Below, piece after piece: positions 12,041 through 24,662 of a stretch of 64,000 nt of DNA. Under the pieces are notes generated by a model that saw nothing but the letters and a program-made list of their open reading frames with translations, searched no databases and was not told where the DNA came from. This stretch comes from Candidatus Calditenuis fumarioli (GTDB lineage: Archaea > Thermoproteota > Nitrososphaeria_A > Caldarchaeales > Calditenuaceae): assembly GCA_030059665.1 (NCBI GenBank), contig JANVYR010000001.1:352001-416000 (forward strand), in the 5' to 3' direction. Positions within the stretch are counted from its first letter, which is position 1. Every line of letters starts with the position of its first letter. The position numbers and the translations under genes were made by a program.

Positions 12041-13435
12041 ATGAGGGAGGTGCAGGTCTGGAAGTTCGGCGGCACGTCCCTCGGCAGCGGCGAGAGGATC
12101 AGAAGGGTTGCGGGCCTCATCGCGGAGGGCCTCAGGAGCAGGGACCTCGTGGTGGTGTGCTCGGCCATGGGCGACACCACGGACCAACTCATGGCGGCGG
12201 CCGACGCCGCAGCGAAGGGCGACTCTCAGACAGCGACCGCCGTGGTCAGGGCGATACAGGAGGAGCACCTGAAGGCATGCGGTGAGGCGGTGGAGGACGC
12301 ACAGGTGAGGAGGGAGGTGGAGAGGTTCGTGATCTCGAGGACCGAGGAGCTCGAGAAGGTGGTGACGAGCGCATCCCTCCTGAAGGAGGTGACCGAGAGG
12401 ACGAGGGACCTGATCGCCTCCTTCGGCGAGAGGCTCTCCACTAGGATCGTTTGGGGCGCCCTCCGGTCGATGGGCGTGGACGCGGTCTACCTCGAGGGCT
12501 TCGAGGCCGGCATCGTCACCGACGACTCCTTCGGCAGCGCGAACCCCCTGATGCCCCTCACTGCGCAGCTGATCCGGGAAAGGGTCGGAGGGCTCCTCGC
12601 GCAGGGTAAGGTCCCCGTGGTCACGGGGTACATCGCAGCCACCAGGGACGGCATCATCACCACGCTGGGAAGGGGAGGGTCGGATTACACCGCCACGCTG
12701 ATCGCCTACTCGCTGGACGCCAAGGAGGTATGGCTCTGGACCGACGTCGACGGGATGATGTCGGCCGATCCCAGGGTCGTCAGCACGGCCCGCGTCCTCC
12801 GGAGGATATCCTACGACGAGGCGGTCGAGATGGCCTACTTCGGCGCGAAGGGCCTCCAGATCAGGACGCTCCTGCCGGCGAAGGAGAAGGGGATACTGAT
12901 CAGGATCAGGAACACCTTCAACCCCGAATCCGAGGGGACAATCATCGGCGACTCCACCGACCGGGAGATGGGCGTGACGAAAGCGGTGCTCTTCACGAGG
13001 AACGTCTCGATGCTCACCGTCAAGGGCGACGTCCTGAGGGGCGGTGTGCTATCCGCGAGGGTCCTGGCGGTTCTGGAGAGGCTTGGGGTCGTGCCTCTTA
13101 TGATCTCGCAGAGCGTCTCGAGCTCCTCCATCTCGATCGTCCTACCGAGACAGGTGACCGACTTGGTGGTGAGGGGGCTTGAGCGCGACGTGATAACCGA
13201 GCTGGGGGGCGGTGAGCTGGAGGTGGAGCGGGACGTCGCAGCGGTTGCCGTGATCGGTGAGGGGATGAAGGGAACTCCCGGGGTGGCGAGCAGGGTCTTC
13301 ACTGCCGTAGCGAGCAAGGGCATCAACGTCAGGATGATCGCTCAGGGTTCCTCGGAGCTGAACATCTCGTTCGTGGTGAAGGAGCGCGACGTGGAGGAGG
13401 CAGTCAGGGCCGTCCACGCGGCCTTCATCGCTTAG
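12041..13435 (+). CDS. lysC: Aspartate kinase with two ACT domains
   Basis: KFGGTS, SAMGDTTD, SFGERLS, TTLGRGGSDYTA, WTDVDG..ADPR and QGSSELNISFVV. Confidence 0.95.
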   Translation: MREVQVWKFGGTSLGSGERIRRVAGLIAEGLRSRDLVVVCSAMGDTTDQLMAAADAAAKGDSQTATAVVRAIQEEHLKACGEAVEDAQVRREVERFVISRTEELEKVVTSASLLKEVTERTRDLIASFGERLSTRIVWGALRSMGVDAVYLEGFEAGIVTDDSFGSANPLMPLTAQLIRERVGGLLAQGKVPVVTGYIAATRDGIITTLGRGGSDYTATLIAYSLDAKEVWLWTDVDGMMSADPRVVSTARVLRRISYDEAVEMAYFGAKGLQIRTLLPAKEKGILIRIRNTFNPESEGTIIGDSTDREMGVTKAVLFTRNVSMLTVKGDVLRGGVLSARVLAVLERLGVVPLMISQSVSSSSISIVLPRQVTDLVVRGLERDVITELGGGELEVERDVAAVAVIGEGMKGTPGVASRVFTAVASKGINVRMIAQGSSELNISFVVKERDVEEAVRAVHAAFIA

Positions 13436-14712: not shown

Positions 14713-16500
14713 GTGAGCGTCAGGGACCTGATCGCGGGGTACGTCGAGGCTGCCCTCGGAGAGCGCGAGCTCACGCTCCTCATCAGGGGTGCATCTGTCC
14801 TGAACGTCTTCTCGGGGGAGCTGGAGGACGTCAATATCGGCGTCTACCGGGACAGGGTCGTCTACCTCGGCAGGGAGGAGAGGAGGGCCGAGAGGGTGCT
14901 GGACGTGAAGGGGGTCGCGGTTCCTGGGTTCATCGACACGCACCTGCACATCGAGAGCAGCATGGTCACGCCGGCAAGGTTCGCGGAGGCCGTTCTCCCC
15001 CACGGGACCACCACTGTGGTTGCCGATCCCCATGAGATCGCGAACGTCCTCGGCAAGGAGGGCGTCAGGATGATGCTGGAGAACTCGAGGGGCTTGCCGC
15101 TGAAGGTCTACTACTTCATGCCGACCTGCGTGCCGGAGTCCGACGCGGTCACAGCAGGCGCTGAGATAACGCCCGAGGACGTGGAGGAGGCCCTCGGCTG
15201 GGACGGGATAGCAGGGCTCGGAGAGGTGATGGACTACGAATCGGTACTGGCCAGGCGGGAGAAGTTCATGCGCATCCTGGAGGCAGGCTGGAGGAGGAAC
15301 TCGGTGATAGACGGCCACTGCGTCCTCCTCTCCGGTGCCAGGTTGAACGCGTACATCGCTGCGGGGCCTGAGGCGGACCACGAGAACTTCACGATCGAGT
15401 CGATGCTCGAGAAGCTCAGGCGAGGGATGTACGTCAAGCTGAGGGGCCCGTACATCCTCGATCCGAGGAGGTTCGTCGAGGCGCTGAAGGGATTGCCGAA
15501 CGGCTGGGAGAGGGTCGTCTTCGTGACGGACGATGTGATGCCCGACACGCTGCTGGAGAAGGGGCACCTCGACTTCGTCGTCAGGTCGATGATCGAGGCC
15601 GGGATGGACGAGGTCGAGGCGATCAGGAGCGCGACCCTCAGGCCGGCGGAGCACATGAGGATGCGGGATCTCGGCGCGATCGCACCTGGAAGGATCGCTG
15701 ACGTCCTGATCCTCAGGGACCTCAGGAGGGTGGATGTTGACCTGGTGGTCGCGAGCGGCGTTCCGGTTGCGAGGGGTGGAAGGCTGATCGTTCAGCTCGA
15801 GAGGAGGAGCTTCGACCGGAGGGCTTACGGCACGGTGAGGGTCAAAGAGCTCAAACAGGAGGACTTCGTCTTCAGGGCCCCCATCAAGGAGGGCAGGATG
15901 AGAGTGAGGGTGGTTGACTTCCCGAGGCCAGAGGAGATCGCCGGCGACGTCTCCTGGACCTTCCTCCAGATGATCGTGACGAAGCTGTCGGAGGCTGAGA
16001 TCGAGGTCCGAGATCACAGGCCGGTGCTCGGCGAGGTGGCGCTGATGAAGGTGATCGAGCGTCACGGGAAGCACGGGTCGAGCGGCGTGGGGTTCGTACG
16101 GAACCTCCTCAGGAGGGGCGCGGTGGCAACAACGGTCGCTCACGACTCCCACAACCTCGCCGTCGTAGGAACGAACCCGGTCGACATGCACGTCGCAGCG
16201 ACGGAGGTGATCAGAGCGGGAGGCGGGATGGCTGCAGCACTTGACGGGAAGGTTCTGGCCCTGATCGAGCTGCCGATCGCGGGGCTGATGTCGGAGGAAC
16301 CGGTGGAGGTGATGGCGGGTAAGATGAGGGCGTTCCGGGAGGCCCTCAGGAGGCTCGAAGCCATCGACCACCCGTACATGCCTCTGATCTCGCTGATGAC
16401 GCTCTCCGTGATACCGAGGGTCAGGGTCACCGACAAGGGGCTCTTCGACGTTATCGAGCAGCGCTTCCTCGATCCGGTGATCGAGGCCGTTCCGAGCTGA
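14713..16500 (+). CDS. ade: Adenine deaminase (binuclear amidohydrolase)
   Basis: PGFIDTHLHIES, DPHEIANV, DGH, DHE, TDD and TVAHDSHN. Confidence 0.9.
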   Translation: MSVRDLIAGYVEAALGERELTLLIRGASVLNVFSGELEDVNIGVYRDRVVYLGREERRAERVLDVKGVAVPGFIDTHLHIESSMVTPARFAEAVLPHGTTTVVADPHEIANVLGKEGVRMMLENSRGLPLKVYYFMPTCVPESDAVTAGAEITPEDVEEALGWDGIAGLGEVMDYESVLARREKFMRILEAGWRRNSVIDGHCVLLSGARLNAYIAAGPEADHENFTIESMLEKLRRGMYVKLRGPYILDPRRFVEALKGLPNGWERVVFVTDDVMPDTLLEKGHLDFVVRSMIEAGMDEVEAIRSATLRPAEHMRMRDLGAIAPGRIADVLILRDLRRVDVDLVVASGVPVARGGRLIVQLERRSFDRRAYGTVRVKELKQEDFVFRAPIKEGRMRVRVVDFPRPEEIAGDVSWTFLQMIVTKLSEAEIEVRDHRPVLGEVALMKVIERHGKHGSSGVGFVRNLLRRGAVATTVAHDSHNLAVVGTNPVDMHVAATEVIRAGGGMAAALDGKVLALIELPIAGLMSEEPVEVMAGKMRAFREALRRLEAIDHPYMPLISLMTLSVIPRVRVTDKGLFDVIEQRFLDPVIEAVPS

Positions 16501-16512
16501 GGTCCCGATGAG

Positions 16513-17922
16513 GTGAGGTCGTTGACGTTCGACCTCTTGCTGAGGAACTGCAGGGCGGTGGACGTCACGGGCGTCCAGGAGTGCGACGTGGCGATAGAGG
16601 ACGGAAGGATCGCGAAGCTCGCGAGGAACGCGGAGGACCAGGCCGATCGCGTGATCGACTGCCGGGGGATGCTAGTCTTTCCCGGAGCGATAGACGGACA
16701 CGTCCACTTCGAGATGGATTACGGACCCGGCATCAGGACCGCCGACGACTTCAGGACAGGGACCGAGAGCGCGGCTTGCGGCGGGGTTACGACGGTCATA
16801 GACTTCGTGACGCCCAGGAGGGGCCAGTCCCTGATAGAGGCCTTCGAGGAGCGCCTCGGCGCGGCCCAAGCTAAGGCGGTGGTGGACTTCGGGCTGCACG
16901 TCTGCGTGCTCGAGGTCAACGGGCAGCGCCTGTCTGAGCTGAGGCACCTCGTCTCGGAGCGCGGCGTGGCATCGGTCAAGGTCTTCACCGCGTACAGGGC
17001 GAGGGGATTGATGATAGACGACGGCTCGCTGGTCAGGCTCGCCAGGGAGCTGGCCGCGATGGACGTCCTGATGCTCTGCCACTGCGAGAACGAGGACATG
17101 ATCGCGAAAGCAACGGAGGAGCTGGTTTTCGAGGGGAGGACGGGAATCGAGCACTACGAGTCGAGCAGGCCGGACTTCGCCGAGGCCGAGGCCGTTAACA
17201 GGATAGGTTTTGTCTCGAGCCTCACGGGCGTCGAGTTCCTGGTGGTCCACATCTCCTCGGCAGCAGCGCTCTCCTCCCTGAGGGCACTCAAGAGGTCAGG
17301 GGTGAGGGCGAGGGGGGAGACGTGCCCGCACTACCTCCTCTTCACGAAGGACCTGTACGCCACCGATAGGGGCCCGCTGTACGTGATGGCTCCACCGCTC
17401 AGGACCGAGGTCGACAGGAGGAGCCTCTGGCAGGGCATCGCCGACGGAGCGATCGACGTGGTGGGTAGCGACCACGCGCCCTACCTCGCGGTTCACAAGT
17501 CGAGGTCGAAAGACTTCAGGGAGGTCCCGGGAGGGGTCCAGGGCACGGAGGTGATCGTGCCGGTGCTCTTCTCGGAAGGAGTTCGTAAGGGGATAATCGG
17601 GCTGGAGAGGTTCGTCGAGCTGACGTCGCACAACCCCGCCAGGCTCTACGGCCTCTCCCACCGGAAGGGGAGGATCGCGGTGGGATGGGACGCGGACCTC
17701 GTGGTGCTGGACCCGTCGAAGAGGGTCAGGCTAGGTAAGGAGGTGCTCCACAGCGCCCTCGACCACTCGATCTACGAGGGCATCGAGGTGACGGGCTACC
17801 CGGTCATCACGATCTCCCGCGGCGAGGTGGTGGCAGAGAACGGTCAGGTCCTCGGGAGGCCCGGAAGGGGCCAGTACCTCCACCGCAGCAGGAAGAGGGC
17901 GGAACCCGTTCAGCTCAGGTGA
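16513..17922 (+). CDS. hydA: Dihydropyrimidinase/hydantoinase (HyuA-like cyclic amidohydrolase)
   Basis: PGAIDGHVH, carbamylated-Lys motif SVKVF, HCEN, VHIS, ETCPHYL, PPLR and SDHAP. Confidence 0.88.
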   Translation: MRSLTFDLLLRNCRAVDVTGVQECDVAIEDGRIAKLARNAEDQADRVIDCRGMLVFPGAIDGHVHFEMDYGPGIRTADDFRTGTESAACGGVTTVIDFVTPRRGQSLIEAFEERLGAAQAKAVVDFGLHVCVLEVNGQRLSELRHLVSERGVASVKVFTAYRARGLMIDDGSLVRLARELAAMDVLMLCHCENEDMIAKATEELVFEGRTGIEHYESSRPDFAEAEAVNRIGFVSSLTGVEFLVVHISSAAALSSLRALKRSGVRARGETCPHYLLFTKDLYATDRGPLYVMAPPLRTEVDRRSLWQGIADGAIDVVGSDHAPYLAVHKSRSKDFREVPGGVQGTEVIVPVLFSEGVRKGIIGLERFVELTSHNPARLYGLSHRKGRIAVGWDADLVVLDPSKRVRLGKEVLHSALDHSIYEGIEVTGYPVITISRGEVVAENGQVLGRPGRGQYLHRSRKRAEPVQLR

Positions 17923-19184
17923 CGCCTCAGCTCCTCCACCTCAGGCGATATCAGCGGGACCTCACCCACCCCTCCCAGAAGCTTCTCCACCTCCTTCAGC
18001 CCCGAACCGGTCACGAGCACCACCACCCTGTCCGACCTGTCCAGGAAGCCCTCGTCGAGAAGCCTCCTGAGGGCCGCAAGCCCCACAGCACCGGACGGCT
18101 CCGCGAACACACCTGCCTTAGAGGCCAGAACCCTGACCGCATCCATGATCTCTTCGTCGGGCACGGCAACTCCCTTCCCTCTGGTCTTCTTGACACCCTC
18201 GATCGCGGCGTCTCCGTCCCAGGGGAAGGGGTCGAGTAGGCCTGATGCGACGGACCTCGGGTTCGGCTCGGGCTGGATCCGCTCAAAGGGGATGCCCGCG
18301 TTGATCGCCCTCACCAGCTGCTGGTTCCCCTCCGGCTGGACCGGTATCAGCATTGGAAGCTCCTCCTCCCTCAGGATTCCCAGCGCCATCAGGTCCCTGA
18401 GGCCCTTCCAGAGACCGGTAAGGAAGCATCCGGACCCCGTCGGGACGAGGACCGCGTCGGGCGACTTCCATCCCAGCTGCTCCACCAGCTCGTAGACGAC
18501 GGTCTTGGGGCCCTCGACTTGGTACGGGTTGAAGGGGCCGAAGCTCGGGCACGGGTACCAGCCGAAGGCCCGGACCGCCTTGACCATGAGGTCCACCGTC
18601 GGGTCCTTTCCCGGCTCAACGGCCCTCACCCGGAAGAGCTTTGCGCCGAAGGTGATCAGCTGGGCCGCCTTCCCTAACGAGACGTCCTCGGGGACGAAGG
18701 CGTAGCAGGAGATTCCGGAGGAGGCGCAGTAGGCCGCGAGGGATGAGGCAGCGTTGCCGCTGGACGCGGTGACCGCCACCCTCTTCCCCAGCTCGACCGC
18801 CTTCGCGACCCCAACGGCCATCGCCCTGTCCTTGAAGGAACCGGTCGGATTTCGTGTCTCGTCCTTGAGGTACACGCTCCTTGTCCCGAGGAAGTCGTTC
18901 AGCCTCCTGGAGAATATCAGCGGGGTCCACCCCTCCCTCAGCGGGGCTGCGTGCTCCTTCGATGCTGGCATGAGCTCCCAGTATCGCCAGACGCCCATCT
19001 CCACCGGACGCGACGCTATCGTCTCCCTCCCGAGGACCTCCTTGACGGCCTCGTAATCGTAGACCACGTCGAGCCTGCCGAGGTCCATGTTGTCGCACAT
19101 CACCGGCCCCTGCTCGGGCCTGTACCTCCTGCCGCACCTCGAGCAGATCAGCTCCACCACGAACCGACTTCGCCCGCCCCCCAA
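17910..19184 (-). CDS. Threonine-synthase-fold (type II PLP) enzyme, probably not a true ThrC
   Basis: N-terminal Zn-ribbon-like CSRC, NPTGSFKDR (PLP Lys), SSGNA, VPTGSG and EPSGA. Residues that normally bind the substrate phosphate appear substituted. Confidence 0.75.
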   Translation of the reverse strand: MGGGRSRFVVELICSRCGRRYRPEQGPVMCDNMDLGRLDVVYDYEAVKEVLGRETIASRPVEMGVWRYWELMPASKEHAAPLREGWTPLIFSRRLNDFLGTRSVYLKDETRNPTGSFKDRAMAVGVAKAVELGKRVAVTASSGNAASSLAAYCASSGISCYAFVPEDVSLGKAAQLITFGAKLFRVRAVEPGKDPTVDLMVKAVRAFGWYPCPSFGPFNPYQVEGPKTVVYELVEQLGWKSPDAVLVPTGSGCFLTGLWKGLRDLMALGILREEELPMLIPVQPEGNQQLVRAINAGIPFERIQPEPNPRSVASGLLDPFPWDGDAAIEGVKKTRGKGVAVPDEEIMDAVRVLASKAGVFAEPSGAVGLAALRRLLDEGFLDRSDRVVVLVTGSGLKEVEKLLGGVGEVPLISPEVEELRRHLS

Positions 19185-19191
19185 ACGCAGC

Positions 19192-20559
19192 TCACCTTCT
19201 CAGCGGAAGGGGCTCAACGGCCTCCGGGGGTGAGGTGCCGAGCCTCTCCCAGAGCCTCTCGATGGTCCGGAGGACCCTCCTCTCCGCCTCCTCTCTGTCC
19301 ACGGTGAGGAGCCTGCCATCACGGACGATCTGCCTGCCTCCGACCACGACGTGCCTGACGTCACCGCCGCTCAGCGCGTTGACCACGTACGCGTATGGGT
19401 CCCCTGTCGTGGGCGTGGCAAGGACCCTGGGCCTCAGGACCACCACGTCTGCGAGGTTCCCAGGCGAGATCGAGCCGTAGTTCCTCATCCCGTAGGCCTC
19501 CGCGGCCCTCTTCGTGACCATCTCCAGCACCTGTCGGGGACTGAGAGCCCTTGGGTCCCTCTTCGCAACTCGGTGGAGGAGGAATGCAGCCCTGGCGTTC
19601 TCGAGCATGTCGAAGACGTACCCGTCGTTACCGAGGCAGACGTTCACACCCGCGGTTAGCATCTCGGGAACCGGTGCGACGCCGACCGCGTTCAGCATGT
19701 TGCTCATGGGGTTGTGGGCCACGCTGGTCCTGTGCCTCGCGAGGGTCGCCACCTCGCTCAGCGTGAGGTGGACGCAGTGTGCTAGGACGGCCCTGCTGCT
19801 CAGCGCCTCGAGGTCCTCCAACCGCTCCACCGTCCTCTTCCCGTACCGCTCGATGTTGTGATAGACGTCGTTCGGTCCCTCAGCGACGTGGATCGTTATG
19901 GGGCAGTTGTACCGCTTTGAGAGCTCTACGCCCTTCCTGATCAGCTCGTCGGAGACGGTGAAGGACGCGTGGATGCTGACCATCCCGTACGCGTTCCCCT
20001 TGGGGCCTTTGAGGTACCGTTCGTTCTCCCGGAGGCCCCTCTCGCCCTCCTCGGCGCTCCTCCGCTCGGTCGCCTCGAAGGCAATGAAGCCGCGGATCCC
20101 CACCTCGTTGACGGCGTTGGCTATCGCGTCGAGGGAGCCCTCGATCCCGTTCGGCGCGGAGTACGTGTCGGCGAAGCAGGTGGTACCGGTGAGGGCCATC
20201 TCCATGCAGGCCGCAAGGGCTGTCGCGTAGGCGTCGTCGTTCGTCAACCTCTCGTCCAGAGGCCACCAGACCCTCTGGAGGATCTGCAGGAAGTCCGACG
20301 GAGGCTTCACCTCGAGGCTAGCCCCCCTCAGCGCTATGCCGTAGAGGTGCGTGTGACCGCAGAAGAGCCCCGGCAGGACGAAACCTCCCCTCGCGTCTAT
20401 CACCTGGTCTGGCTTCCCCTCCCGCTCCACCTCATCGGCCCTCCCGACCTTCGCGATCCGGTCGCCCTCGATCAGCACCGCGCCGTCGTGCACCACGCCG
20501 AGCCTCTCGTCCATCGTGATGACAACCCCGCCTCGAACGAGGAGCCTCTCCTCCGCCAT
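19192..20559 (-). CDS. ssnA: SsnA-like amidohydrolase
   Basis: CGHTHLY, DFLQILQRVWWPLDERL, SAPNGIEGSL, FEATER, HASFTV, IHVAE and LGNDG closely follow my recollection of E. coli SsnA. Start reassigned to MAEER at 20559. Confidence 0.78.
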   Translation of the reverse strand: MAEERLLVRGGVVITMDERLGVVHDGAVLIEGDRIAKVGRADEVEREGKPDQVIDARGGFVLPGLFCGHTHLYGIALRGASLEVKPPSDFLQILQRVWWPLDERLTNDDAYATALAACMEMALTGTTCFADTYSAPNGIEGSLDAIANAVNEVGIRGFIAFEATERRSAEEGERGLRENERYLKGPKGNAYGMVSIHASFTVSDELIRKGVELSKRYNCPITIHVAEGPNDVYHNIERYGKRTVERLEDLEALSSRAVLAHCVHLTLSEVATLARHRTSVAHNPMSNMLNAVGVAPVPEMLTAGVNVCLGNDGYVFDMLENARAAFLLHRVAKRDPRALSPRQVLEMVTKRAAEAYGMRNYGSISPGNLADVVVLRPRVLATPTTGDPYAYVVNALSGGDVRHVVVGGRQIVRDGRLLTVDREEAERRVLRTIERLWERLGTSPPEAVEPLPLRR

Positions 20560-20573
20560 CGTCACCCACCACC

Positions 20574-21581
20574 TCAGATAGAGCTGAGAGCCTTGATCGC
20601 GTAATCGAGGTTCCCGCTCAGCAGCAAAATCAGTGGGGCCGTGCAGCCGTGCCTCATGTACTCCTCGATCTTCTTTTTGACCTCCTGGGGCGTCCCGGAT
20701 GCGGTGATCATCCTCACCACCTCGTCCGGAACTATCTCCATCGCACGCTCGATCCCGCCGGGCTTCGCGGGCCATCCTCCCATCGCTTTCTGGACCTCCT
20801 CGATCAGGTCCTCGCTTACGCCGCTCGCCTTCATGATGTGAGGCTGCTGGCCGAGCGTCATCGTCACGTGCTTCTTCGCGACCTTGACCGCCCTCTCCCC
20901 GTCCTCGTCGATCGAGCAGGCGATCAGCTGCGGCCTGTCGATGTCCTCCAGCCTCCTGCCAGACCTCTCGGCTCCCCTCTTGATGTGCTCGAGGGCCTTG
21001 TCGTTGTACGCAGGCGACACTAGGTAGTTCAGCAGGACCCCGTCCGCGATTTCACCGGCCAGCTCCATCATCTTGAAGCCCGTGGCTCCGATGTAGATGG
21101 GGACGTTCCTCGGAACCTGTCCCTTCCCGTGCAGGACGTCGAGCCTGATGCCCCTAACCTTCACGAACTTACCCTCGTACGTGACCTCCTCCATCCTCAG
21201 CAGCCGCCGGATCACCTCGACGTACTCCCTCATGCACTGCAGCGGCTCCTTCCTCTCTATCCCGACCTTCCAGGCGAGCGGGTCCCACCAGGCCCCGAGC
21301 CCCAGCATGACCCTGTTGTCGGCGAGCTCGTCAAGCGTCGCGAAGGTCTGCGCTATCAGGGCGGCGTTCCTGGTCCAGGTGTTGATCACGCCCGCACCAA
21401 CCTTGATCCTCTCCGTCACCGTCGCTATCGCGGTCATCGGGACTATCGCGTCCCTCGAGAGCCTCGACTCGGCCACCCATGCGGACTCGAAGCCGTGCTT
21501 CTCGGCCATCTGCGCGTACCTCACCATGTCCCTCACGTGCATGTCCTGGAGGTAAAGTCCGAGCCTGGGTATGGACGCCAC
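20574..21581 (-). CDS. LLM-class (Mer-like) F420/flavin-dependent oxidoreductase
   Basis: [28 protein letters not shown]...R..LGLG and [21 protein letters not shown]. Confidence 0.88.
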
Positions 21582-21970: not shown

Positions 21971-23518
21971 ATGGGCATGAGCCACCCCCGAACCCCTCTC
22001 GTCTCGATGAGGGGGATAACGAAGAGATTCCCGGGAGGGGTTGTTGCGAACGACCGCGTCGACTTCGACCTTTACCCGGGAGAGGTGCACGCGCTGCTCG
22101 GTGAGAACGGTGCGGGAAAGACGACGCTGATGAACGTCCTCTACGGCCTCTACGCCAAGGACGAGGGCGAGATCTACGTCGACGGCAAAAGGGTCGAGAT
22201 CAGGTCTCCGAGGGACGCCATCAGGCTCGGGATCGGCATGGTCCACCAGCAGTTCAAGCTGATACCGCGTCACACGGTCCTAGAGAACGTTGTGCTGGGC
22301 CTGAAGGAGGCCGGGTTCGTGCTGAACTACCGGAGGCTCAGGGAGGTGTTGACGAAAATCGTGAGGGAGTACGGCTGGAACCTCGACCCTGACGCGTACG
22401 TCTGGCAGCTCACGGCGTCGCAGAAGCAACAGGTGGAGATCCTGAAGCTTCTCGTGAGGAGGGCGAGGGTGCTGATTCTGGACGAGCCGACGTCCATCCT
22501 CACCCCCCAGGAGACGACCGCGCTCTTCGAGAGCATCCGTTCCATGGCGTCCAAGGGGATCGGCGTGGTGCTGGTGACCCACAAGCTCGAGGAGGTGATG
22601 CGCGTCTGCGACAGGGTGACCGTGATGAGGAGAGGTAAGGTGGTGGCCGTGAGGAAAAGGGATGAGCTGAACGCGGAGGAGCTGGTGACGCTCATGGTCG
22701 GTCGAAGGATCGAGCGCGTCTACCAGGTCTCCTCGAGACCGTCGGAGAGGAAGGTGCTCGAGGTGCGGGACCTCGTGGTGCTCGACGACAGGGGATCATT
22801 GGCGGTGAAGGGCGTGAGCTTCCACGTCTGTGCCGGAGAGGTCTTCGGGATAGCGGGGGTTGCGGGGAACGGGCAGGACGAGCTCCTCGAGGCGATCTAC
22901 GGCCTCAGGAAGGCGGTCTCAGGCAAGGTCCACCTGAACGGCAGGGACGTCACGAACCTGCCCACGTGGGAGCTGGTTAAGGAGGGCGTTGCGATGATCG
23001 TGCCGGAGGCCGTAAAGGGCGTGGGCCTCGGCCTCACCGTCGCCGAGAACCTCATGCTGAAGTGTTACAGGTACGCACCGTACTCGAGATACGGCCTGCT
23101 GAGGAGGAGGGAGCTCGAGGAGGCCGCGAGGAGGCTTGTCGAGGAGCTGAAGATCGTGACGAGGTCAGTCAACGCTAAGGCCTCCACCCTCTCAGGCGGC
23201 AACCTGCAGCGCCTGATGGTCGCGAGGGAGCTCTTCGCCAACCCCGGACGTCGGACCCCCGTCCTCCTGCTTGCCTCCCACCCGACGAAGGGGCTGGACG
23301 TGGCAGCCACAGATTACGTAAGGAGGTTGATCCTGAGCGTCCGCGACAGCGGAGCGGCCGTCGTTTTGCTCTCGGACGACTTGGAGGAGCTGATATCGTT
23401 GAGCGACAGGATAGGCGTGATGTACAAGGGCGAGATGCTGGCCGTCCTGGAGAAGGAGAGGGCGGAGGTCGAGAAAATAGGGATGCTGATGATGGGCATG
23501 AGGTCCGTGTCGCCTTAG
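21971..23518 (+). CDS. ABC transporter ATP-binding protein with two NBDs (nucleoside/sugar CUT2 type)
   Basis: ITKRFPG.VAND.V, GENGAGKTT, GMVHQ.F, LDEPT, GVAGNGQ, LSGGNLQR and PTKGLDV. Confidence 0.9.
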   Translation: MGMSHPRTPLVSMRGITKRFPGGVVANDRVDFDLYPGEVHALLGENGAGKTTLMNVLYGLYAKDEGEIYVDGKRVEIRSPRDAIRLGIGMVHQQFKLIPRHTVLENVVLGLKEAGFVLNYRRLREVLTKIVREYGWNLDPDAYVWQLTASQKQQVEILKLLVRRARVLILDEPTSILTPQETTALFESIRSMASKGIGVVLVTHKLEEVMRVCDRVTVMRRGKVVAVRKRDELNAEELVTLMVGRRIERVYQVSSRPSERKVLEVRDLVVLDDRGSLAVKGVSFHVCAGEVFGIAGVAGNGQDELLEAIYGLRKAVSGKVHLNGRDVTNLPTWELVKEGVAMIVPEAVKGVGLGLTVAENLMLKCYRYAPYSRYGLLRRRELEEAARRLVEELKIVTRSVNAKASTLSGGNLQRLMVARELFANPGRRTPVLLLASHPTKGLDVAATDYVRRLILSVRDSGAAVVLLSDDLEELISLSDRIGVMYKGEMLAVLEKERAEVEKIGMLMMGMRSVSP

Positions 23519-24570
23519 CCGCCCATCGTCATGACCATGACGGCCTTCTGGACGTGGAGCCTGTTCTCCGCCTGCTCGAAGTAGAGCGAGTACTCCTTGT
23601 TGTCGATCACGTCGTCCGTCACCTCCTGGCCCCTGTCCGCAGGTCCGCAGTGCATGTACTTGCCCTTGTTGGTCAGATCCATCAGCTCCTGCGTGCAGAT
23701 CCAGTGCTTGAACTTGTTCTGGTACTCGACGGCGCCCTCCTTGTCGACCTTGCCGTTGTAGGGCGGGAAGAACCCCTTCGGTGACCACGCCTTCGGGTAG
23801 ACGAAGTCGGCTCCCTCGAACGCCTCCCTCATGTCGTGGACTATCTCGAAGCTGCCTCCGTACCGGTCTGCGTTCTCCTTTGCGGCCTTTATCACGTGGT
23901 CCTCGAGCTCGAAGCCCGGCGGGTGTGCCAGGACGACGTCCATTCCGAACATCGTTCCTATCAGCACGCACGATTGAGGCACCGCCAGAGGCTTCAGGCC
24001 TCCGGAGTAGGCATAAGAGACGACGAACTTCTTGCCGCGCGGGTTCGGGGCGACGTCGGTTATCGCCATGATGTCAGCGAGGGCTTGGAAGGGATGGTAG
24101 ACGTCGTCCTCCATGTTGAGGACGGGGATGCTGCTCCACTTGGCGAACTCCCTGACGACCCTGTGACCGCGCCCGATGTGCCACTTGGCCGCGTCGCCGT
24201 AGATCCTGATCGCGATCGCATCGCCGTACCTGCTCAGGACCCTCGCGACGTCGGCTATCGACTCGGTCTGATATGGAACCATGTCCTCGGGGAGCGTCGG
24301 CGTGTAGACGTCCTGGGGGCTGAGGAAGTGCGCGTGTCCTCCCAGCTGGAAGATTCCGGCCTCGAACGAGTTGCGGGTCCGGAGGCTTCGGTTGTAGAAG
24401 AGCATGAAGAGCGTTTTTCCCTGAAGGTACGGCGTTGGAATCCTCGACCTGAACTTCGTCCTGAGGTCCCTGGCAGCCTCCAGGACCTGCTCGATCTCCT
24501 CCCGCGTGAAGTCGTTCGTGTTCAGGAAGTGCCTGCCCCTCAGGAGGCCTGCGTACCTGGGCAGCTCCAT
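23515..24570 (-). CDS. ygeW: YgeW-like carbamoyltransferase (ATCase/OTCase superfamily)
   Basis: NRSLRTR, HPFQ, YAYSGGLKPLAVPQS, FGMDVVLAHP, YPKAWSP and HCGPAD match YgeW (AYSPSYGKPLSVPQ, YPKSW, HCLPAD) rather than ArgF or PyrB. Start set at MELPRY. Confidence 0.75.
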   Translation of the reverse strand: MELPRYAGLLRGRHFLNTNDFTREEIEQVLEAARDLRTKFRSRIPTPYLQGKTLFMLFYNRSLRTRNSFEAGIFQLGGHAHFLSPQDVYTPTLPEDMVPYQTESIADVARVLSRYGDAIAIRIYGDAAKWHIGRGHRVVREFAKWSSIPVLNMEDDVYHPFQALADIMAITDVAPNPRGKKFVVSYAYSGGLKPLAVPQSCVLIGTMFGMDVVLAHPPGFELEDHVIKAAKENADRYGGSFEIVHDMREAFEGADFVYPKAWSPKGFFPPYNGKVDKEGAVEYQNKFKHWICTQELMDLTNKGKYMHCGPADRGQEVTDDVIDNKEYSLYFEQAENRLHVQKAVMVMTMGG

Positions 24571-24662
24571 TTCGTGCTCATCCGTTTTCACCGACCTAAA
24601 AACGCATTCCGGCAGGGAGGTGATGGAAAAGTTATGCATAAGCCATGCTTTAGCCCACCGGG

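Follow-up and report, generated by a model that had tools for sequence, protein, structure and literature searches.

A luciferase-like F420-class protein paired with an SsnA-like hydrolase in Candidatus Calditenuis fumarioli: a predicted purine ring reductase of the reductive uric-acid pathway in Archaea

A predicted ring reductase in Caldarchaeales

We analysed a stretch of 64,000 nucleotides (contig JANVYR010000001.1, positions 352,001 to 416,000; hereafter the window) from Candidatus Calditenuis fumarioli, a hot-spring archaeon of the order Caldarchaeales whose genome is represented by 1.57 Mb on three contigs and is 91% complete. The first gene of an operon in this window encodes a small Mer-like protein of the luciferase-like monooxygenase (LLM) family and lies directly upstream of a gene for an SsnA-like amidohydrolase. 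Based on gene context, this LLM is probably (at roughly 0.6) an F420H2-dependent reductase of the 2,8-dioxopurine ring which acts coupled to the SsnA-like enzyme and replaces YgfK or UacX in a reductive uric-acid pathway of archaeal type. Cofactor, reaction direction and substrate are all inferred.

YgfK has been described to give a product only when coupled to SsnA, with the ring first being reduced and then hydrolysed, and the two enzymes together yield ureidomethyl-hydantoin as the major and 5-ureido-dihydrouracil as the minor product (PMC12507026). In C. difficile, YgfK is substituted by UacX, a protein of the PF01180 family (PMC12507026). A full-text literature search joining F420 and SsnA counted two papers with both terms and listed one of them, the study by Li et al., in which Chloroflexota SsnA clusters without YgfK and UacX were reported and an F420-dependent reductase of the luciferase family was proposed for them on bioinformatic grounds only (Li et al., Life Metab 2025, PMC12507026; preprint 10.1101/2025.05.19.654654). 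The authors named the substrate 'yanthine', which is 2,8-dioxopurine; their similarity network comprises bacteria only and the word 'archaea' is absent from their text (PMC12507026). A preliminary description of the window, made from the sequence alone, had regarded a purine reductase of this type as new chemistry for the family. This claim is weakened because Li et al. had already proposed such an enzyme for Chloroflexota (PMC12507026), and the window LLM is best read as an archaeal orthologue of the published predicted enzyme. What may be new are the alternation of LLM and UacX-like genes within one archaeal order and the active-site differences from Mer. The same may hold for the absence of FO synthase across the order, in which genes for the tail and the recharging of F420 are nevertheless kept.

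A conserved pair of predicted reductase and hydrolase genes

The preliminary description had placed the LLM at the head of an operon, directly upstream of ssnA and separated from it by 14 nt, and this arrangement can be read directly from the sequence: the stop codon TGA of the LLM gene occupies positions 20574-20576, the next ATG is found at 20559, and the gap of exactly 14 nt consists of the Shine-Dalgarno-like sequence GGTGGTGGGTGACG. We compared 76 Caldarchaeales genomes, with at least 77% identity for orthologues of the LLM and at least 62% for those of the SsnA-like protein. Both orthologues were present in an identical set of 27 genomes, and they were adjacent in all 24 genomes that carried both inside one contig, the other cases being broken at contig ends. 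The neighbourhood on which the reductase idea had been built is conserved, and the adjacency is far above chance.

The absence of a conventional ring reductase, which the preliminary description had noted for the cluster, extends to the whole genome. No YgfK or DPD-like (dihydropyrimidine dehydrogenase-like) flavo-Fe-S gene was detected between 12 and 26 kb of the window, and a whole-genome search for YgfK with TIGR03315 gave a best score of 55 bits (cut-off 835), obtained in an FAD/NAD-binding domain elsewhere. A UacX/PreA-type reductase was likewise not found in the genome, where the sole PF01180 protein is of the PyrD type without Fe-S domains. The possibility of a YgfK or UacX hidden elsewhere in the genome was rejected, as the whole-genome searches found neither.

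Two other genomes of the order, G042 and G043, have kept the SsnA-like gene (54% identity) and the ThrC-like gene of the operon and lack the LLM. Their clusters encode a UacX-like, 386-aa DHO_dh protein (PF01180) with two 4Fe-4S domains, in the gene order ferredoxin, AOR (aldehyde ferredoxin oxidoreductase), UacX-like gene, ferredoxin, AOR, and with a third ferredoxin-AOR pair nearby (G042, locus L037, C2:31000-50999; G043, locus L038). The UacX-like gene is a clean non-orthologous displacement of the LLM at the same position of the cluster, and in this variant the role of the molybdenum enzyme xanthine dehydrogenase (XDH) may fall to AORs of the tungsten type. In a third genome (G040) an SsnA-like gene of 52% identity was found with no obvious reductase at its locus; the genes seen there are limited to those for a 2-oxoacid:ferredoxin oxidoreductase, a phosphoribosyltransferase and the transporter.

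In the complete genome G012 the cluster comprises, in this order, genes for a Bmp-ABC transporter, Ade, the LLM, the SsnA-like protein, the FAD, 2Fe-2S and molybdenum cofactor (MoCo) subunits of XDH, an OTC-like (ornithine transcarbamoylase-like) protein, carbamate kinase and the ThrC-like protein. This gene order mirrors the xdhD-ygfM / ygfK-ssnA / hyuA / ygeW / yqeA set of E. coli.

Orthologues in other phyla

We scanned GTDB species genomes for orthologues of the LLM, clustered the neighbours of 80 loci (60 of them bacterial) and annotated recurrent families. The orthologues are 56-93% identical overall, and those at 56-63% occur in Chloroflexota, Acidobacteriota, Actinomycetota, Armatimonadota, Bathyarchaeia, Nitrososphaerales and a metagenome-assembled genome (MAG) of Halobacteriales. 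Genes for F420 supply were found at 34 of the 60 bacterial loci, COG0402 amidohydrolases at 39 and parts of XDH at 33 of all 80. Anaerolineae share a stereotyped operon with genes, in this order, for PALP, SsnA, Fno, CofE, a nitroreductase, CofD, CofC, the LLM, a thioesterase (4HBT), an FAD subunit or a protein of ~860 aa, XDH and XdhC. The bacterial amidohydrolases encoded beside LLM orthologues pass the cut-off for SsnA (516-529 bits, cut-off 444). Over its full length the window LLM is 56-61% identical to the LLMs of Anaerolineae and Thermoflexus, whose operons carry bona fide SsnA, XDH and F420 genes, compared with ~32% to Mer, and it appears to be an orthologue of the LLM in the Chloroflexota SsnA/XDH clusters. 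Taken together, the displacement by a UacX-like gene and the bacterial operons joining SsnA, Fno, CofC, CofD, CofE and XDH strengthen the interpretation of the LLM as a reductase.

The ~860-aa protein of the Anaerolineae operons is conserved and has no match in Pfam. It is encoded between the LLM or thioesterase gene and the gene for the large subunit of XDH (loci L069, L074, L076, L078, L104, L114 and L116).

Protein family, cofactor class and active site

The LLM belongs to PF00296 Bac_luciferase (E 3e-71). Its first 15 NCBIfam matches are all to F420-class models (127-208 bits), and the first FMN-class model follows at 66 bits. The structure model (mean pLDDT 90) has its best fold match in jMer (8qpl; TM 0.87, 32% identity), and in the ranking of PDB entries by sequence and by fold, Mer comes first, followed by FGD and Adf, with the FMN monooxygenases lower.

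An FMN-dependent, O2-using LLM monooxygenase that attacks a purine or pyrimidine ring in the manner of RutA would therefore be a far-fetched explanation, since FMN enzymes rank under every F420 enzyme in sequence and fold searches alike and no FMN-class model exceeds the score given above. The orthologues occur within CofC/D/E-Fno operons and no flavin reductase partner is present in the cluster, which also argues against such an enzyme. In its favour, the pyrimidine oxygenase RutA is itself an LLM, an aerobic or microaerobic way of life is assumed for many Caldarchaeales, and the genome here has no FO synthase. Of the preliminary suggestion of an F420- or FMN-dependent 2,8-dioxopurine reductase, the F420-dependent form is retained by gene context, and FMN is unlikely as the cofactor.

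Because genes for a ThrC-like protein and an aspartate kinase were found nearby, the former in the operon itself and the latter 7 kb away, we also considered a true methylene-tetrahydropterin reductase, i.e. Mer itself or a substitute for MTHFR, in C1 or methionine metabolism. In its favour, the highest family score and the closest fold are both those of Mer. The LLM remains well below the cut-offs of both Mer models (TIGR03555, 208.3 bits against 348.7; NF002619, 205.3 against 276), what is conserved around its gene in the different phyla are genes for SsnA, XDH and ureide enzymes and not C1 genes, and the aspartate kinase is not a conserved neighbour. Moreover, some of the residues that characterize the active site of Mer are not retained. 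In jMer, a non-prolyl cis-peptide bond between Gly61 and Val62 lies under the F420 ring, Asp96 binds the pterin, and the catalytic Glu6 is located at the end of strand beta-1 (PMC11094777). In the alignment, G64-V65 of the LLM corresponds to this cis-peptide site after beta-3 and is invariant in the subfamily. The counterpart of Asp96 in the phmmer alignment is W99, invariant in 15 orthologues, and D35-H36 of jMer is replaced by E38-S39. In the model, strand beta-1 consists of G8-L9-Y10-L11 and leads into Q12-D13, with no Glu among these residues; a PDB search with the N-terminal 45 residues gave no match to Mer, so that the Glu6 position is unaligned and its loss is presumed. With sub-cut-off scores, the exchange of D96 for W99 and no conserved C1 or methionine neighbours, we rejected a true Mer as scarcely credible. 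The retained G64-V65 together with the exchanges at D96 and D35-H36 rather points to a predicted F420-type scaffold with a remodelled substrate pocket. The gene names currently in use, namely 5,10-methylenetetrahydromethanopterin reductase, F420-dependent G6P (glucose-6-phosphate) dehydrogenase and generic LLM, are all misleading.

The same residues bear on the direction of the reaction. With FGD and Adf as the next structural neighbours after Mer, the LLM might be an F420-reducing dehydrogenase that oxidizes a reduced intermediate, or some other alcohol or amine, and thereby supplies F420H2. The Fno of the operons can run both ways, and 'dehydrogenase' is the term used in one place by Li et al. 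for the enzyme of Chloroflexota (PMC12507026). We consider the oxidative direction very unlikely, since the active-site His of FGD and Adf (D35-H36 in jMer) is among the residues exchanged for E38-S39, the closest relative of the LLM, Mer, is a reductase, and it is precisely for this step of the pathway that a reductant is required, with no other reductase present.

Proposed reaction

In the mechanism that we propose for a 2,8-dioxopurine reductase, Fno would charge F420 from NADPH and the LLM would use F420H2 to deliver a hydride to 2,8-dioxopurine at the C6=N1 imine carbon, in a step resembling the transfer by Mer to the iminium carbon of methylene-tetrahydromethanopterin (methylene-H4MPT). 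The dearomatised product would be thermodynamically unfavourable, and the co-translated SsnA-like enzyme would immediately consume it through hydrolysis of the amidine bond at C4. C6 as the hydride acceptor and the C4 amidine as the site of hydrolysis are suggested by the structures of the published products of YgfK and SsnA. The ureides would then be processed by the hydantoinase, the YgeW-like carbamoyltransferase, carbamate kinase and the ThrC-like enzyme, which depends on pyridoxal phosphate (PLP). The coupling of the LLM and SsnA-like genes over 14 nt would suit a reduction that is unfavourable and has to be drawn forward.

Supply of F420, partner hydrolase and remaining pathway genes

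Several observations weigh against this reading, and the first concerns the supply of F420. The preliminary description had pointed to F420 genes as something to look for, and this expectation was borne out in part. CofD (303 bits, cut-off 257), CofE (307, cut-off 181) and Fno (173, cut-off 150) are all encoded in the genome, as is an FbiB-C-like nitroreductase whose gene adjoins that of CofD (C2:512977-514526; CofE at C2:279550-280281). FO synthase (CofG/H), on the other hand, was found neither in this genome nor in 75 of the 76 Caldarchaeales genomes, a closed one of 1.68 Mb among them, and CofC was not found in this genome either, where PF01983 and tblastn with the Chloroflexota protein gave at most a marginal match (E 0.006). 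Without CofG/H, F420 would depend on scavenged FO. CofE genes occur in 60 of these 76 genomes, and the overall pattern in Caldarchaeales suggests reliance on a scavenged FO head group or on an FO synthase of an unrecognised type. A more far-reaching proposal, which we put forward tentatively and would not expect to hold in full, is that the LLM is the first luciferase-like enzyme to dearomatise a purine with F420H2, in FO-scavenging thermophilic archaea that keep CofD, CofE, the FbiB-C-like protein and Fno, with LLM and UacX-like enzymes alternating within the order. If this were true, an entire energy-yielding pathway of purine catabolism would hang on a deazaflavin head group from neighbouring microbes.

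The second concerns the partner hydrolase. SsnA is its best family, but the protein misses the cut-offs of both SsnA models (NF005540, 344.9 bits against 444; TIGR03314 (IPR017700), 313.8 against 455.5) and is just 27-28% identical to SsnA of E. coli, and its substrate may differ. E. coli SsnA nevertheless finds the window protein as its best match in this genome (28%, 159 bits), whereas GuaD matches a paralogue better. In a quick tree with few outgroups, the protein falls in a clade of SsnA sensu lato (SH-aLRT 99%), apart from the GuaD/MtaD-like group, with the archaeal SsnA-like proteins as the sister of bona fide SsnA and not nested inside it. The metal ligands and the SsnA-type motifs HxH, HxxE, WWxLD and SNMxNxVG are retained.

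This divergence raises the question whether the LLM has the proposed role and cofactor but acts on another N-heterocycle, such as xanthine, urate, 8-oxopurine, 6,8-dioxopurine, hydroxylated adenine, or a pyrimidine, e.g. uracil feeding the adjacent dihydropyrimidinase. Apart from the position of the archaeal clade and its scores, the most constant archaeal neighbours, which are genes of the adenine-deaminase family and of the dihydropyrimidinase type, would agree with another substrate. Furthermore, a paralogous LLM/amidohydrolase pair (~50% and ~36% identity) is adjacent in eight Caldarchaeales genomes, this one not included, and in G012 such a pair is found next to a gene for the large subunit of XDH (locus L029, C1:353000-372999); L040 and L041 are further loci of this paralogous trio of LLM, amidohydrolase and XDH. 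The trio implies more than one substrate, and it hints at a second pathway with an F420-dependent LLM and a hydrolase for another heterocycle. We still regard a different substrate for the window LLM as unlikely, given that the neighbouring XDH, carbamoyltransferase and carbamate kinase genes are those expected for urate breakdown rather than for the Pyd pathway, and that the bacterial orthologues with 56-61% identity pair with bona fide SsnA.

Further points against a 2,8-dioxopurine reductase come from the remaining pathway genes. The XDH genes of this genome lie outside the window, ~120 kb upstream of the LLM. They belong to a second purine locus (C1:239461-251524, ~100-112 kb before the start of the window) with the order PALP, XDH FAD, 2Fe-2S and MoCo subunits, carbamate kinase, a second OTC-like gene, a second XDH and a GuaD-like deaminase. 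The XDH subunits of this locus are orthologues of those encoded behind LLM-SsnA in Ca. Caldarchaeum, with 66% identity to G012 for the large subunit, the carbamate kinase is 47% identical to YqeA, and the PALP protein is a relative of the one whose gene opens the Chloroflexota operons; Fno (C1:234140-234775) is encoded 5 kb upstream. With eleven molybdopterin large subunits of the XDH/CODH (carbon monoxide dehydrogenase) family and about nine LLM paralogues, the genome has an unusually large complement of both for its 1.57 Mb. Searches of the genome with E. coli queries revealed no orthologue of YgeX and a weak match alone for YgeY. At 12 of the 80 orthologue loci, neighbours of the SsnA, XDH and F420-supply types are all lacking within 7 kb. 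Finally, no published enzyme assay for any member of the SsnA-linked LLM subfamily was found in the literature.

Neighbouring genes in the window

The genes around the LLM are listed in Table 1, and some of them give an indication of further steps of the pathway. The ThrC-like gene has the same orientation as the SsnA-like gene and begins 7 nt after it. Its product comes close to the threonine synthase model NF006050 (300.9 bits, cut-off 303), and the gene is kept in the cluster in other Caldarchaeales, in Acidobacteriota and in a Halobacteriales MAG. Because there is no YgeX orthologue and the YgeY match is weak, this ThrC-fold enzyme may take over the final pathway steps, e.g. through a beta-elimination on 3-ureidoalanine. 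The D-hydantoinase is 38% identical to HyuA of E. coli, and no other protein of this genome matches YgeW of E. coli as well as the OTC-family protein does (34% identity). The gene of the adenine-deaminase-family protein, which scores 453 with TIGR01178 (cut-off 472.5), adjoins the LLM in many archaeal loci.

On the other side of the LLM, at a distance of ~100 nt, the RAM-only Lrp/AsnC gene encodes a protein without a DNA-binding domain. Its position is conserved within the genus, and the protein may sense a metabolite of the pathway. A relative of the CUT2-type ATPase gene sits in G012 together with genes for a Bmp binding protein and two permeases beside Ade-LLM-SsnA; in relatives, this ATPase is part of a nucleoside-type transporter of the Bmp/PnrA kind.

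Table 1. The LLM gene and its neighbours, with positions as in the window.
Feature	Position	Strand	Remarks
Adenine-deaminase-family amidohydrolase	14713..16500	+	PF13382 and PF01979; convergent on operon; start codon uncertain
D-hydantoinase/dihydropyrimidinase, HyuA counterpart	16513..17922	+	TIGR02033 437, cut-off 393; convergent on operon
ThrC-fold PLP enzyme	17910..19184	-	PF00291; third operon gene; candidate replacement for YgeX and/or YgeY
SsnA-like amidohydrolase, 455 aa	19192..20559	-	Predicted ring-opening hydrolase; SsnA is best family
Spacer of 14 nt, LLM stop to ATG of ssnA-like gene	20560..20573	-	GGTGG/GGTGA Shine-Dalgarno-like motif; direct sequence reading
Mer-like F420-class LLM, 335 aa	20574..21581	-	Predicted 2,8-dioxopurine reductase; first operon gene; GTG start
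RAM-only Lrp/AsnC ligand-binding protein, 76 aa	21685..21915	+	PF01037 at 3e-13; divergent from LLM
CUT2-type ABC ATPase	21971..23518	+	Two PF00005 domains; divergent from operon
OTC-family carbamoyltransferase, YgeW-like candidate	23515..24639	-	PF02729 and PF00185; start codon uncertain
Aspartate kinase	12041-13435		~7 kb from LLM

Comparison with known systems

If the LLM is a ring reductase as predicted, the same step of the urate pathway would have been filled independently by three unrelated families, namely YgfK with NAD(P)H, UacX with ferredoxin and an F420-dependent LLM, and the dearomatisation of purines would join the known reactions of F420 enzymes. A pathway of gut bacteria would then extend to archaea of hot springs, soils and sediments as well as to Chloroflexota, Acidobacteriota and Actinomycetota. 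A small, single-subunit LLM free of Fe-S clusters could also suit engineered urate-degrading strains better than the oxygen-sensitive YgfK with its 1032 aa.

Compared with Mer (PDB 8qpl, 1z69, 1f07 and 1ezw), the window LLM shows 30-33% identity and TM values of 0.84-0.89, and the chemistry proposed for it would be of the same type, a hydride transfer from F420H2 to the carbon of a C=N bond. It differs from Mer by the additional conserved residues W35, R40, R43, W69, R71, W99 and W270, and its hosts differ in having no methanogenesis and in the purine-catabolic context of the gene.

With respect to YgfK, also known as DOPOR, the NADPH:2,8-dioxopurine oxidoreductase of E. coli, the LLM gene takes the same place directly upstream of ssnA. 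The LLM, YgfK and UacX share the proposed step, a reductive dearomatisation that needs coupled hydrolysis by SsnA. The proteins themselves are very different: YgfK is a 1032-aa Fe-S flavoenzyme and UacX a DHO_dh-type enzyme with FMN and Fe-S, whereas the LLM is a TIM-barrel of 335 aa without an Fe-S motif, has a fold unrelated to that of YgfK and is not its homologue. The electron donor would be F420H2 instead of NAD(P)H for YgfK or ferredoxin for UacX.

The closest system is that of Chloroflexota described by Li et al., which has in common with ours a PF00296 protein encoded near SsnA in a genome without YgfK or UacX. The host here is a Caldarchaeales archaeon, and the LLM gene lies immediately upstream of the hydrolase gene, in contrast to a distance of ~4 kb in Chloroflexota. 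Furthermore, the partner here belongs to a divergent SsnA-like clade below the cut-offs, unlike the SsnA of Chloroflexota. Also unlike Chloroflexota, the F420 genes lie outside the cluster, the genome has no FO synthase, and XDH is encoded at a second locus.

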